Below, piece by piece: positions 42,886 through 54,800 of a stretch of 64,000 nt of DNA. The stretch's first letter is position 1. The number at the start of each line of letters is the position of its first letter. Source of the stretch: a virus; IMG/VR virus record IMGVR_UViG_3300025424_000296, positions 49,211-113,210 of that record, one strand, 5' to 3'. The notes under the pieces were generated by a model. It did no database searches and was not told the DNA's origin. It saw nothing but the letters and a program-made list of their open reading frames with translations. The translations under genes and the position numbers were made by a program.

Positions 42886-45800
42886 ATGACTTCAACTATT
42901 GATCCAAATACCATTGACCCTAATTTTCCCACGGCAAACCAAGATAATCCCAGTCAAGGTTTTAGAGATAATTTCTCAGCTATTAGAGAAAATTTTGAAA
43001 GAGCTGAATTAGAATTAACCAATTTACAGAATACAGTAATATCAGCAACTGGTCCTGTTAAAAGTGTTGTACCGATCAGCTTGGGCGGAAATGCTGCTCC
43101 AATTAGTATTCAATTGCAATTTGCATATAGTGATGCAAATTATCAATTAACATTTCCTGGTACCAGTGCAGTTGTAATACCGCAGGGTGTTACAGCACAA
43201 CGTCCGGTTGGTGCTGTTGGTCAAATACGTTACAACGTTGATTTTAATTATATAGAATATTGGAATGGTAATGATTGGTATCCGGTTGGCCCAACAGGTC
43301 CTACTGGTGCTACAAGTACTATAACAGGTCCTACTGGTCCAGCTGGAGGTCCCACTGGCCCTACTGGTGAACGAGGTTATCAAGGACTTCCAGGACCACA
43401 AGGTTTACCAGGTGTTCCTGGTCCAACAGGTGCCACTGGTCCAACAGGTCCTACAGGCTATACAGGTCCAACTGGGCCTACAGGTAATACAGGTCCAACT
43501 GGCCCTACTGGTGATACAGGCCCAACTGGTCCGACTGGTCCTACTGGTGCAACAGGTCCTACTGGTGCAACTGGTCCTACTGGTTACACTGGTCCAACTG
43601 GCCCTACTGGTGAAACAGGTCCAACTGGCCCTACTGGTGCAACTGGTAATGCAGCTCTTCCTGCTGCCCCTATAAACTCGGTACAGTTTAACCTAGATGG
43701 TAAACAATTAGGCGGTTCTTCTCTACTGACATGGGATGGTACATCGTTAAATGCAAATGCAGCAATGGTTCAGAATATCAACATTGCTAACGATATAATT
43801 AAGAATAGATTGAGTGCTGCTAATTTAACATTACAAGAACTTGGTGGCGGCGGTGTAGTAGTTAGCAATGAATTGTTTGTCTTGGGTCGTACCCATGGTA
43901 CTGCACCATATGTTACTGGTATTCTTTATGTTACAAAAGACGGCGACGACGGAAACGACGGTTTAACAGAAGATAGAGCAAAGAAAACCATTGCAAGTGC
44001 AGCAGCAGTGGCAGCAGATAATATACGTTACAACGGTTGGGTATATGCTACAATCTATGTAAGAGCGGGAGTTTATATTGAACCAAATCCAATTACCATA
44101 CATAGTGGTTGTACAGTTTTTGGTGATAATCTACGTTCGGTAACAGTTGAACCACAAAATCCGCATGAGGATATATTCTGGGTTAATCCAGCAACTTACT
44201 TGTATGGTATGACTTTTAGAAAATATTATCATCCGGCCGCTGCGGTACAATTCCCAGCAGACGGTACCAACGTAATTCATGATCTACATGATTGGGCATC
44301 ACCTTATGTACAGAACTGTACAAGTATCACAGTTGGTCAGTATGATGCAAGCGGTAATATCGTTGTGGAAGCTGGTACAGGCATGGTTGTTGACGGGTTA
44401 CGTGGACGTAAATTATCAGATCCTGCCCCAGGTAACGTGCAGGTTTATACTTTCGATGCTATAGTAGATGAAACAACAGCCATTATCTATCAGGACATTG
44501 CTCCTACGTTGAGTAGTAATATAAGTCTTGGATGGCAGTTACAAAGTGGTATTGTTGGTACTCCTGCAAATGTTGATGCAATCACTAGTACTGTATACGC
44601 AGGACAGCCTGCTTGGCAAGTTACCATTGATCAACCTTTGATAAACAGAGTAACTGTTAGCGGTTTCGACGCTATACTCAATGATACAGAGGCAGTTGTT
44701 TTAGACAGCACAAGTACAGATATGAAGAGTGTTATTACGTCGGGTTGGAATTTAACTGATCCTGGGTTTGATAGTGCTGCTACACTATTAGGTGCTAATA
44801 GAAGATTCTTTAAAGCTGAAGTAAGAGCATATGTAGAAACTTTATTCCCAGGGTTCCTTAATCCCACACAGTTAGATTTATGCACTAGAGATGTTGGCAC
44901 AATACTTGATCTTGTACTACAAGATGTATTACATGGCGGTCATGCACGTAGTAGGGATGCAGGTAATGTTTACTGGAAAAATAACAAATCAATAATTGCG
45001 GGTCAAGAGAATGAAACAGCTCAAGCTATATCATATCTCAAAGAACTAGCATTACAAGTTATTGCTAATATTCCAATAAATTATACCTATCAGCTGGGCG
45101 AGTTGCAAAAGATACTACCAGATGTACAAGGTGGAGAAATAGTTTCTGTGTCTCTTGCTACAAACTTTGACATAGTTGGCGACATTATCATACACGGTAT
45201 AGGACACGATCCAATTAAACTAGCACATGGACTATTAACTACTAATAAGGCATTTATACAAGAAGAAACGTTTGCATATGTTCAAGCGACCTACCAAGAC
45301 TTTGCTTATGATACAAATCTATGTCATAGAGACATCGGTCTTATTGTTGATTGCATAGCATTTGACCTAGTAAATGGTGGATATGCCAAATGTGTAGCAG
45401 CTGGTCGTGCTTATTGGGATGGTGCTACCAGCAAGATACCAGGTCAACAGAATCAAACAGTCGGAGCTATCAATTTTGCAAAACTGTTGGTCCTACATGT
45501 GTTAAGCAATGAGCAAGTTATATTCACATACCAAAACAATGTCACTCAATTTGTAGATCCAAATGTTAAAGGCACTACTATAGCAACACATTTGATTGAC
45601 CAAGGATTTGAAATAATCACAGGTATTATTAATTTTGGTCCAGATCACATTCCATATATAAAGACTTTACCTGTAGCCAAACAAAGTTACAAGCCGATAC
45701 CAGCTAATTTGTTTGCTGCACAAAGTCTGGTGTTAGCTAACGTTCCGTTTATACAGGATCAGATAATACTATATCTTAATGGGAAATATCCGGGGTGGAA

Positions 45801-51800: not shown

Positions 51801-54800
51801 AGCAGTTATTGGTAATAATACCACACTTCCAAAAGTAGTTGATACCAATTTAACCACATTGCCATTTCCGTATACTGGGGGCAGTGTCTTGACATTGCGT
51901 TCTGGTCCAGCAATTGGTTACACAGGTGTTATGTCGGGTGTTGTTTCATCAATTAATGTATCATTTACTGTATCAACAACTTCTTCTGTTAATAATATCA
52001 TAACAATTGTTGGTTCTACTGCTAATTTCTTACCAAATCAAATAGTCACATTTTCTGGCAATATGTTTGGGGGACTTGTAGAAGGTGAAACATATTATGT
52101 TTACAGTGTAGATACTGCAACTTCATTTACTATATCTACTGGTCCTAGAATAATAACACAAGTTACATATCCATTAACATATACAACTGGTATTAATGCT
52201 AGTGGATTAATATCGGATGCGTTTGAAAGAGTAACAAGCACCATTAGACTTGCACCTGATAAAAGTAAGGAAGATGCATTTAAATTATTAATGTATAACG
52301 TACAGTTTATACAAGACCAAATAATCTACTATGTAAACACAACGTATACAAACAGTACCTATGCTTCAAAAGGTTGGAGTTATGATACTGTAAAATGTTC
52401 TAGAGATGCTGCACTTATTGCTATAAGTGTTATGGCTGATATACTAAATGGCGGTAATGAACTCAGTACTGCTACAGGTAACAGTTATTGGAAGGGTGCG
52501 GTTAGTGTCCTTAGTGATCCTAGCGCACAGATACCATATACAGTAGATGCTATTAATCAATTGAAAATATTGATAGCTAAAGTGATATCAAATGATACTA
52601 GTTTACCTTCACAATTTAATCAATCAACTAGTGCTGTACAAGTGACATATCCGGCGCAAGTTTACGCAGCAAGTGAAAAGGGTAATGTTACTGCATCATT
52701 TAATAATGTTACTAGCATAATAGCATCTGCACCACCAAGTCCGACGCCTTACAACACTGCAAAATTTGCAGCATATAGCTTGATTTTAGCTAATGTTGGA
52801 TTTGTTCAGGAACAAATTGTTAAATTTGTTAACACTGCGTACCCAAGCTGGCAGTATAAGACTGATAAGTGCAGTAGAGACGTTGCTACCATGTTGGTGT
52901 CAATTGTTACTGATCTGATGTTAGGTGATACTAATTATCCTAACAGCAAATTAGTGGGCAACAGTTATTGGAATGGTGCAGTTAGTGTACTACCCGATCC
53001 AACTGCACATATCCCACACACACAAAATGCAATTGATGCAATACGCGAGTTAGTCAATCAGATCATTGTTAATGATACTACACCATTGGTATTCAACTAC
53101 CAAGATCCTAACTTTGCAAACCCATCTAGTCCTATAAACAGAACTTATACATTTGATATGGCAGGACAAGTGATATTATCGCAATATACAGGTGGTAATA
53201 CATATCAAACTGATATTGATAATTGTTTAACAACTATTAAAAACATTGTTGGCACTGGAACAGTTCAAGTTAATTCTCCGTTTACTACCAATAATCTTGA
53301 TATTAATAAAACACAAGCACAAGCATTATTAATTAGTAATACTCCGTTTATTCAAGACCAAGTATCTGCGTATGTTGATCAGGTTTTTGCATCAATAGGA
53401 TGGACTTATGGTCAATCAAATCCAGATAACGTATCTGCTGCTAAGCTAAAATGTCACAGAGATACAGGAATAATAATGTGTTCTGTGATAAATGATATAC
53501 TAACTGGAACTACCAATTATACCACATTATCTGGTGATGCATACTGGAACGGTGTGGTTAGTGTATTAGGTGATCCTTCCCTGCATATCGAATATACAAC
53601 TGATGCGTTTAATAAAGCATTAGAGATTTCATTGTCAGTGCTTGATAATGTGGCAATTGGAACAGGTGAGCAGGTAATTTTACTTGATCTTAATCAGGGC
53701 GCAGCAGAAATTCCAGCATTTAACGCATATTTAGATCTAATTGCTAGAATCGTAGAAAATGGATCAACTGTTAGCAAAACAATACCAGTTGAAATGTTTA
53801 ACGCACAAACATTAGCATTGTATAATAAGGACTTTATACAACAACAGATTATTGCATACATCAATAATACATATCCTGGGTTTAGTTACAATCAAACACT
53901 ATGTGGTAGAGATACTAGACTATTAATACAGAGTGTAATGGATGATTTATTAGCAGGAACTACTATTAGCTCTGTGATAGCTGGTAATAGTTATTGGAAC
54001 GGAACTAATACAATTCTTGCCACTGATTCCGCTAATCAAATACCTCATACTATAGATGCTATTAATCAAATATCTGCACTATTACAAAAAGTAATAGCAA
54101 ATGATACTAATCTTCCGGTGCCATTCCCATATTCAACTACTGCTTCACAAGTAGTAAATTCCACGTACAGCGGTGGATCAATATACTCTCAACAGGTAGC
54201 AAGTCTATTCACAATAATCACTGGTATTATATCAAATGGACCAAGTAAAGGACTAATAGAAGTTAACGGTTTACGACACGCTAGTGAACTACTTGCTGCT
54301 AACACCAGATGGTTGCAAGATCAAATAGTAGCATATGTGGATGCAACATATGCATATCAAGGTTGGTCATATAACAGTGCTAAGTGTGCAAGGGATGTTG
54401 GATTATTATTAGATGCAGTAGTAACAGACATGTTAGAGGGTAGTACAATCAATAGTATTGGTGCTGGGGAGGCATATTGGAACGGTGCAATTAGCGTTTT
54501 AAGTGATCCAAACGTACAAATACCTTATACTGTAGATGCTGTTAATCAACTAGCAGCTCTTGCAATAAAAGTCATTAACAACGATTCAGTATTACCATCA
54601 CCGTTCCCGTATACCACAGGATCACAACAAGTAAAAATACCAAGTTACACAGGGGGTAATATAGGTACTGGTTCTATAACAACTGGTTTTGCTATAATTA
54701 ATGATATTATTCAAAACGGATATGGTACAACACCAATTTGGATGAGTGACGGACCAGTAACAATAAGTGCAATTACACCAATTACTTGGGAAGGTCAACC

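Follow-up and report, generated by a model that had tools for sequence, protein, structure and literature searches.

Twenty tandem phycobiliprotein-like domains with an intact Cys-x-Arg-Asp motif in a putative giant fibre protein of an uncultured jumbo phage

Introduction

Could a virus particle carry bilin pigments? The question is raised by a 64,000-nt stretch of viral DNA (hereafter the window; positions 49,211 to 113,210 of IMG/VR record IMGVR_UViG_3300025424_000296), in which one gene encodes a giant putative fibre protein whose shaft consists of 20 tandem repeats. An initial annotation, made from the sequence alone, likened these repeats to phycobiliproteins (PBPs), the Cys-x-Arg-Asp motif of which holds the bilin chromophore, and suggested that they could be the missing acceptor for bilins made by phages. 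The source record, a 113-kb contig in IMG/VR, has an estimated completeness of 28% and therefore represents a jumbo phage of roughly 400 kb.

Results

Twenty divergent repeats keep one motif

The motif C-x-R-D occurs exactly 20 times in the 4416-amino-acid (aa) protein, between residues 666 and 3834 and at a spacing of 138–260 residues. Composition predicts 0.043 occurrences, and the highest count among 2000 shuffled sequences was 2. Cutting the array at a conserved F-I-Q helix gives 20 units that span nt 44752–54750, in agreement with the 20 repeats originally placed at 44760–54720. Repeat length is ~150–170 aa, with repeat 15 exceptional at 255 aa (the others are ~160). When aligned, the repeats are 32–47% identical to repeat 20, and the columns L12, N16, C44, R46, D47, D58, G71, Y74 and T92 are invariant; Cys, Arg and Asp are thus kept in all 20 repeats, as had been claimed. 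The alignment also reproduces the consensus first read by eye (A..L...N..FIQ.Q, then KCxRD, GNSYW, IPYT.DA.N and F..I..II), and two details noted at that stage, the AKCARDVG of repeat 20 and the long insertion ahead of the Cys in repeat 6, are both correct. This 20-motif array is the largest uniform array seen in our analysis with every motif intact.

The repeats fall into subtypes X, A and B (Table 1), and repeat 6 stands apart. A strict alternation of two subtypes, like that of alpha and beta subunits, was considered and rejected: A and B alternate only partly, across repeats 3–18, with exceptions. The partial alternation suggests that the array may have grown by duplication of pairs. The insertion that lengthens repeat 15 (~90 aa, ~nt 51913–52185) is rich in beta-type residues (V, T, S and Y) and, located between the core and the last helix, may represent a small additional domain roughly three-quarters of the way along the shaft.

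The repeats resemble phycobiliproteins in sequence and predicted fold

The PBP profile PF00502 scored 21.4 bits on the giant protein, just short of its cut-off of 22.2, aligning residues 1291–1367 (repeat 5) with profile positions 69–145; when the repeats were searched singly, one of the 20 gave a match (E 0.0045). All five relatives tested passed the same profile, with 25–37 bits, and some public relatives already bear an automatic PF00502 tag in precomputed annotation. A hidden Markov model (HMM) of the 20 repeats had 23 matches among all PDB sequences, 22 of which are PBPs. The top match was allophycocyanin alpha-B (E 0.013, profile positions 13–125). In the alignments of this HMM to PDB chains, where the match starts at chain residue 43, the CxRD of the repeats lies in exact register with the CxRD of PBPs (ApcD and ApcA).

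An AlphaFold2 model of repeat 20, with the 20-row alignment as input, has six helices (pLDDT 91.5, pTM 0.88). The top 50 Foldseek matches to this model in the PDB are all PBPs (TM 0.55–0.62). VIA-align, which is independent of Foldseek, placed phycoerythrin beta first (Z 13.8, root-mean-square deviation 2.8 Å over 144 residues), followed by allophycocyanins (Z 13.4 and 12.8) and the bilin domain of ApcE (Z 11.6–12.1); globin-coupled sensors, RsbR and photocobilins rank lower (Z 8–10.6). The structural alignments start at model residue 1 and at PBP residue 30–32, and the N-terminal X/Y assembly helices of PBPs are therefore absent from the repeats. A search of the ESM Atlas gave no usable match. 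A di-domain model of repeats 7–8 (pLDDT 81, pTM 0.74) suggests that adjacent beads may pack as one defined compact unit.

Taking sequence matches to PBPs, fold and motif together, we are highly confident that the repeats are homologous to bilin-binding globins. Both the PBP kinship and the PBP-type globin fold without X/Y helices had been put forward in the initial annotation, and both are borne out by PF00502, the HMM, AlphaFold, Foldseek and VIA-align. In particular, modelling a single repeat, as proposed there, gave a globin-like fold for which PBPs are the best matches.

The triad is conserved across a large family

A HMMER scan of 1.84 billion representative proteins returned 1304 clusters at E < 0.001. 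The best 150 of these 1304 are all long (790–6382 aa) and mostly giant, with up to 36 matched stretches; copies per protein range from 1 to 36. A word-index search found no stand-alone form of 81–447 aa. The smallest natural context seen was a single copy with intact CxRD in a 785-aa protein (G019:C1:232290–234644, minus strand).

Conservation was assessed over 1657 domains from 150 other proteins. The Cys is kept in 95.7%, the Arg in 96.0% and the Asp in 98.7%, and two further residues are similarly conserved, namely a second Asp 11 residues on (99.6%) and a Tyr (98.7%). In the majority of other columns, the top residue accounts for less than 50%. Since the triad is 96–99% kept while most columns drift, it is the PBP chromophore triad that selection appears to hold tightest. 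The second Asp and the Tyr, which is that of GNSYW, are family-specific and have no counterpart in the PBP alignment. In gp101 of phage Syn9, three copies (residues 4391–4887) keep the Cys and Asp and have the Arg replaced (NCEDD, RCKTD and DCKDD).

Carriers of the domain and light-dependent adsorption

A tblastn search of the repeats against 50,697 deposited phage genomes matched 36 records, all of them Synechococcus or Prochlorococcus phages, and the matched proteins are labelled as short tail fibre, tail protein or baseplate wedge. With the domain profile, S-PM2 (two giant open reading frames (ORFs)), S-SM1, P-HM1, P-HM2, Syn9, Syn33, Syn19, S-SSM5, S-ShM2, S-RSM4 and P-RSM4 are positive, and P-SSM4 and P-SSM7 weakly so; the profile found no domain in P-SSM2, S-SSM7, S-SM2 or the podoviruses P-SSP7 and P-GSP1. 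A degenerate DNA pattern of the motif helix led to at least 120 loci in IMG/VR, all of which encode the domain. These are mostly fragments that are 12–28% complete and therefore come from jumbo phages as well. In the S-PM2 genome (NC_006820), RefSeq places 16 tRNA genes within the “short tail fiber” ORF of 3.8 kaa, a frame free of stops; the tRNA coordinates look displaced in this version of the record.

Some of these phages differ in their need for light. Adsorption in the dark is reported for P-SSM2, P-SSP7 and P-GSP1 but not for P-HM2 or P-HM1 (Liu et al. 2019, PMC6628666); for S-PM2, light-only adsorption is reported at second hand in the same source (PMC6628666, citing Jia et al.). All three light-dependent phages (S-PM2, P-HM1 and P-HM2) have the domain and none of the three dark-adsorbing ones does, in a small comparison in which P-HM1 and P-HM2 belong to a single species and podoviruses make up two of the three negatives.

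Bilin supply in relatives that carry the domain

Do phages with the domain have a supply of bilins? Of the carriers tested (designated by G numbers, as is the source record, G000), five are at least 90% complete. Two of them, G019 and G048, encode psbA and therefore have cyanobacterial hosts. The three psbA-negative carriers, G017 (328 kb), G035 (271 kb) and G046 (364 kb), all have an overlapping gene pair for haem oxygenase (HO) and a ferredoxin-dependent bilin reductase (FDBR). The FDBR of G017 and G046 is PcyX (E 2e-48 and 5e-68 against PDB 5OWG, compared with ~1e-13 for PcyA), and that of G035 is intermediate between PcyA and PcyX. G035 and G046 have 29 ORFs in common at 35% identity, and the pairing of the domain with HO and FDBR therefore spans deeply separated lineages.

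HO and FDBR genes occur in the same genome as the domain, in non-adjacent positions, in G017, G035, G046 and G050–G055; in complete relatives, the domain arrays are 90–230 kb distant from hemO-pcyX. The association was also examined in the reciprocal direction. IMG/VR holds 376 PcyX loci. A search of 18 PcyX records found the domain in every one of the six that reach 100 kb, frequently with two or three giant ORFs bearing it, and in two of the 12 smaller fragments. In G046, the region 284000–291300 reads DnaK, Hsp20, ClpS, an 87-aa ORF, HemO, PcyX, a 369-aa ORF, CsgF and CsgG with an SH3 domain (locus 280–7264, minus strand), such that curli-secretion genes (CsgG and CsgF) stand beside the pigment genes.

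A second type of bilin gene, cpeT, is associated with the domain in cyanophages. Among 15 model cyanomyoviruses, 10 have both the domain and CpeT, two have the domain without CpeT, none has CpeT without the domain and three have neither (one-sided Fisher p 0.022, uncorrected for relatedness). In S-PM2, ACG-2014e, ACG-2014i, ACG-2014j, S-CAM4, S-WAM2, S-RIM32, S-H9-1 and G048, cpeT lies 1.5–6 kb upstream of the giant ORF that bears the repeats. G035, a psbA-negative phage with HO and the PcyA/X-like reductase, also has a gene for a CpeT-like T-type lyase (G035:C1:218192–218758, minus strand; 233-aa frame, E 5e-22); to our knowledge, all earlier reports of CpeT concern cyanomyoviruses. A search for CpeS-type lyases was negative in the source record, G017, G035, G046 or G050. 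G019, which is complete (258 kb, terminal repeats) and psbA-positive, has no HO, FDBR or CpeT.

The repeats form the shaft of a predicted virion fibre

The giant protein matches the PHROG tail-fibre families phrog_5342 (E 3e-130), phrog_4527 (E 3e-117) and phrog_17885 (E 8e-98), and the matches that cover the collagen region begin at residue 133–135. The collagen tether mentioned in the initial annotation is present: PF01391 scores 48 bits (cut-off 27.2), with its best stretch at residues 194–252. This tract implies that the giant protein should be a trimer. The C-terminal domain matches the tail fiber family phrog_17885 (residues 4048–4411) and phrog_3442 (4027–4411). The N-terminal domain had no match in Pfam or the PDB, and PDB sequence searches with the shoulder region and the C-terminal domain likewise gave no match.

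Downstream of the giant gene lies a gene for a second collagen-like tail fibre protein, the C-terminus of which matches the long-tail-fibre distal subunit families phrog_1699 and phrog_21722; the two genes appear to form a fibre module. Structure matches in BFVD are to tail and structural proteins of S-PM2, S-H9-1, S-CAM1 and S-WAM2. The homologues in S-PM2 and Syn9 are labelled “virion structural protein” or “tail fiber protein” in RefSeq, and that of Syn9 sits between the baseplate genes gp6 and gp10. The PHROG families, the gene context and the labelled homologues together support the prediction that the repeat-bearing protein is a virion fibre.

Table 1. Features of the giant fibre gene and its neighbour (window coordinates)
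Feature	Position (nt)	Strand	Remarks
Giant fibre gene	42886–56136	+	one unbroken ORF, 4416 codons + stop, 4416 aa
N-terminal domain, residues 1–133, presumed attachment part	42886–43284	+	precedes collagen tract
Collagen-like Gly-Pro-Thr tract, ~residues 134–258	43285–43659	+	PF01391, visible G-x-y repeats
Shoulder region, residues 259–622	43660–44751	+	best stretch of phrog_5342 (343–447)
Repeat 1, subtype X	44752–45198	+	CTRD nt 44881–44892 (residue 666)
Repeat 2, subtype X	45199–45693	+	CHRD nt 45322–45333 (residue 813)
Repeat 3, subtype A	45694–46164	+	CSRD nt 45826–45837 (residue 981)
Repeat 4, subtype B	46165–46647	+	CHRD nt 46288–46299 (residue 1135)
Repeat 5, subtype X, near-threshold PF00502 match	46648–47106	+	CLRD nt 46777–46788 (residue 1298)
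Repeat 6, outlier, long pre-Cys insertion	47107–47580	+	CRRD nt 47290–47301 (residue 1469)
Repeat 7, subtype A, first half of di-domain model	47581–48045	+	CKRD nt 47704–47715 (residue 1607)
Repeat 8, subtype B, second half of di-domain model	48046–48519	+	CHRD nt 48169–48180 (residue 1762)
Repeat 9, subtype A	48520–48996	+	CRRD nt 48652–48663 (residue 1923)
Repeat 10, subtype B	48997–49503	+	CRRD nt 49150–49161 (residue 2089)
Repeat 11, subtype A	49504–49983	+	CRRD nt 49627–49638 (residue 2248)
Repeat 12, subtype A	49984–50478	+	CSRD nt 50116–50127 (residue 2411)
Repeat 13, subtype B	50479–50997	+	CHRD nt 50632–50643 (residue 2583)
Repeat 14, subtype A	50998–51486	+	CSRD nt 51130–51141 (residue 2749)
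Repeat 15, subtype B, ~90-aa insertion	51487–52251	+	CSRD nt 51616–51627 (residue 2911)
Repeat 16, subtype A	52252–52746	+	CSRD nt 52396–52407 (residue 3171)
Repeat 17, subtype A	52747–53292	+	CSRD nt 52870–52881 (residue 3329)
Repeat 18, subtype B	53293–53778	+	CHRD nt 53452–53463 (residue 3523)
Repeat 19, subtype A	53779–54255	+	CGRD nt 53902–53913 (residue 3673)
Repeat 20, subtype A, modelled domain	54256–54750	+	CARD nt 54385–54396 (residue 3834)
C-terminal fibre domain, residues 3956–4416, presumed distal or receptor-binding	54751–56133	+	PHROG matches
Neighbouring collagen-like tail fibre gene, 1627 aa	56766–61649	+	phrog_6320 (E 5e-216)

Other features of the source record

GC content reaches 0.53 at window positions 58001–60000, compared with ~0.36 elsewhere; this rise lies inside the 1627-aa fibre gene and is due to its long Gly-Pro-Thr collagen repeats. 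The window encodes a 760-aa ATP-dependent protease (24158–26440, minus strand; phrog_4871, E 9e-250), which lies in the clearest block common to the source phage (record positions 73368–77033 and 88873–91973) and G046 (181–188 kb). An ORF on the PhoH side (record positions 87658–88446) maps elsewhere in G046, at ~224 kb. A 519-aa ORF (window 10966–12525, plus strand) matches the phage “tryptophan halogenase” family phrog_2928 (E 3e-126).

Discussion

What is new here is the deployment of a domain of PBP type as tandem arrays in virion fibres; we found no publication on PBP-like domains in phage structural proteins or on a PBP kinship of the giant proteins of cyanophages. Phycocyanin, allophycocyanin and the alpha and beta subunits of phycoerythrin have the globin-type helical core in common with the phage repeats, and carry Cys-x-Arg-Asp on the equivalent helix (the Cys-81/84 position), in register with all 20 repeats. 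In contrast to PBPs, the phage domains lack the N-terminal X/Y hairpin that builds the alpha-beta monomer, and have the additional invariant Asp at +11 and GNSYW. PBPs are free 17–20 kDa subunits of the phycobilisome, whereas the phage domains are joined head-to-tail, up to 36 per chain, in a putative virion fibre. PBPs bind a chromophore, a property that is here proposed for the phage repeats.

Other proteins resemble the giant fibre protein in part. ApcE also has a PBP-like domain within a large multi-domain scaffold, and attaches its own bilin autocatalytically. It differs in being part of a cellular antenna, with one PBP-like domain followed by linker (REP) repeats and with the Cys positioned differently. 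The giant proteins of T4-like cyanophages (S-PM2 p091 and “short tail fiber”, Syn9 gp101 and P-HM2 “gp7”) contain the same domain in 3–12 copies, and are annotated as virion structural, tail-fibre or baseplate-wedge proteins. They are 24–38% identical to the fibre described here, with fewer copies, other modules between the copies and, in Syn9, some degenerate motifs.

A cellular precedent outside photosynthetic antennae is that of the bilin biosynthesis-associated globins (BBAGs), PBP paralogues whose genes, in heterotrophic bacteria, neighbour those of haem oxygenase and pre-PcyA (Rockwell, Martin and Lagarias 2023, PMC10151467). BBAG-1 and BBAG-3 carry CXRD, and representatives attach bilins without a lyase; the triad is specific to bilin-binding globins, and phage PcyX falls in the same FDBR lineage as the BBAG-associated reductases, the PcyA lineage (PMC10151467). 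The phage repeats are, likewise, PBP-paralogous globins with CXRD outside a photosynthetic antenna. BBAGs are single-domain cellular proteins encoded next to bilin genes, whereas the phage domains form tandem arrays in structural proteins. Photoglobins and photocobilins, which have a biliverdin-binding globin fold (8j2w, Z 10.2) and a related CXQD motif (PMC10151467), show that a globin fold can serve light sensing. They are cellular, are fused to a B12 domain and match the repeat model less well than PBPs do.

What might the triad be doing in a fibre shaft? We propose that the giant protein is a trimeric virion fibre with a shaft of 20 globin-fold domains, which would descend from the bilin-binding globin lineage of PBPs and BBAGs and would have retained the chromophore triad. 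The Cys would form the thioether link, and the Arg and Asp would hold the propionates and pyrrole nitrogens. Each domain would bear a covalent linear tetrapyrrole, which could be phycoerythrobilin (PEB), phycocyanobilin or biliverdin, supplied by phage HemO and PcyX or by a cyanobacterial host. Loading would take place inside the infected cell, ahead of assembly, and could be autocatalytic, as in BBAGs and ApcE, or aided by the T-type lyase CpeT where the phage has one. Candidate roles for the pigment are stability of the holo-domain, photoprotection and light-gated adsorption. The analysis shows the repeats, their homology, fold and conserved motif, their place in a fibre and, in relatives, a bilin supply that accompanies the domain; bilin attachment and a function of the pigment are what we infer. 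We regard covalent bilin loading of this fibre as the best single explanation, ahead of a pigment-free bead, while holding it tentatively, at somewhat less than even probability.

Several observations weigh against bilin loading. We know of no report of a coloured cyanophage preparation or of a bilin-modified virion peptide, and the evidence for a chromophore on the fibre is indirect. Bilin attachment on PBPs usually needs lyases, and neither CpeT nor CpeS was found in G017 and G046; S-ShM2 carries the domain without CpeT. The Syn9 variants of the triad (CxDD and CxTD) lack the Arg. Middling structural Z-scores come easily with helical folds. In addition, the co-occurrences come from related phages and small samples, and are not independent events.

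The source phage itself adds to these doubts. The initial annotation saw no bilin synthesis gene or lyase in the window, and this absence extends to the whole 113-kb record (28% complete), in which we found no HO, FDBR, CpeT, CpeS or psbA gene; the search for HO, FDBR and lyase genes that it recommended was thus negative for the source record, with HO and FDBR turning up in the nine relatives named above. The record does have Hsp20, ClpS and DnaK together (record positions 14163–18254, ~31–35 kb before the window start), as in PcyX phages, but ClpS and DnaK are separated by 1.3 kb in which there are only small unrelated ORFs, with neither hemO nor pcyX among them. The source phage is only distantly related to PcyX phages, sharing 23 ORFs with G046 at 42% identity. 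We rejected membership of the PcyX clade as unproven, given this distance and a Hsp20-ClpS-DnaK block without hemO-pcyX. Of the idea that the fibre is the missing acceptor for phage-made bilins, then, the part that stands is circumstantial: the near-complete carriers are jumbo phages with PcyX or haem oxygenase, or cyanophages. The part that finds no support in the source record is a bilin supply for this phage itself.

The strongest alternative is a pigment-free building block, which we consider credible, if on balance rather unlikely. A single capture of the PBP/BBAG fold would have been followed by its reuse as a rigid helical bead that lengthens fibres; folding, or contacts between beads or chains (an Arg-Asp salt bridge or a buried Cys, for example), would account for the conservation of the Cys, the Arg, both Asp and the Tyr, and the link to bilin genes would reflect shared phage ancestry. 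A range of 1 to 36 copies is what would be expected of a length-setting module. The restriction of the domain to multi-domain giant structural proteins, with no stand-alone form detected at 81–447 aa, fits this explanation, as do the compactness of the di-domain model, the loss of the Arg in the Syn9 copies and the lack of a bilin gene in 113 kb of the source phage. Such a bead leaves unexplained why the exact PBP triad is kept at 96–99% while the remainder drifts to ~30% identity, and why only phages with access to bilins have the domain. Moreover, one free Cys per domain is unusual in an extracellular virion protein.

A pocket for a ligand other than a bilin seems improbable to us. Haem or another cyclic tetrapyrrole could occupy it, or a host surface molecule, in which case the array would be a multivalent adhesin. 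Globin-coupled sensors and RsbR-type globins are indeed the next-best structures, and the second Asp and the Tyr of GNSYW are without counterpart in PBPs. Neither the 20 repeats nor the 1657 domains have a conserved His that could serve as a haem ligand, however, and the best matches in both sequence and structure are PBPs and not haem globins; the specificity of Cys-x-Arg-Asp for bilin-binding globins (PMC10151467) points the same way. Least probable is a covalent cross-link through the invariant Cys (a disulfide between chains or beads, or another thiol bond) that hardens the fibre: covalent hardening is known from other phage and bacterial fibres, and one invariant Cys per domain with three chains per fibre would allow it, but the Arg and Asp partners fit a chromophore site rather than a cross-link motif, and there is no second conserved Cys or typical pattern of acceptor residues.

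If the fibre does carry covalent bilins, a broader picture can be drawn, which in its entirety we think doubtful. Virions would be pigmented, with up to 60 covalent bilins per fibre trimer. In jumbo phages that are not cyanophages, the family would be the missing acceptor for the PEB that PcyX makes; it would also be what the cyanophage lyase CpeT really acts on, and a light-responsive fibre would explain the adsorption behaviour of S-PM2 and P-HM2. Gasper and colleagues are said to have found in 2017 that CpeT binds PEB tightly without passing it on to the beta subunit of the host. Why phages of non-cyanobacteria have hemO-pcyX has been described as unknown, with a phytochrome or a BBAG named as possibilities (2024 Shemin-pathway paper, PMC11480375), and PcyX is still presented as restricted to phages, with no acceptor named, in a paper of 2026.

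As related phages make bilins or infect cyanobacteria, the presence of pigment on phage particles is now directly testable, and the 20 intact, uniform domains described here are a good source of test constructs. A single protein family makes three questions of marine virology accessible at the bench: the purpose of hemO-pcyX and of PEB synthesis in phages whose hosts are apparently non-photosynthetic, the target of CpeT and the light dependence of adsorption by some cyanophages, which is independent of host photosynthesis. If bilin loading is true, an appendage of the virion that bears chromophores would count as a new type of viral structure, and the lineage of bilin-binding globins would extend from cells to virus particles.

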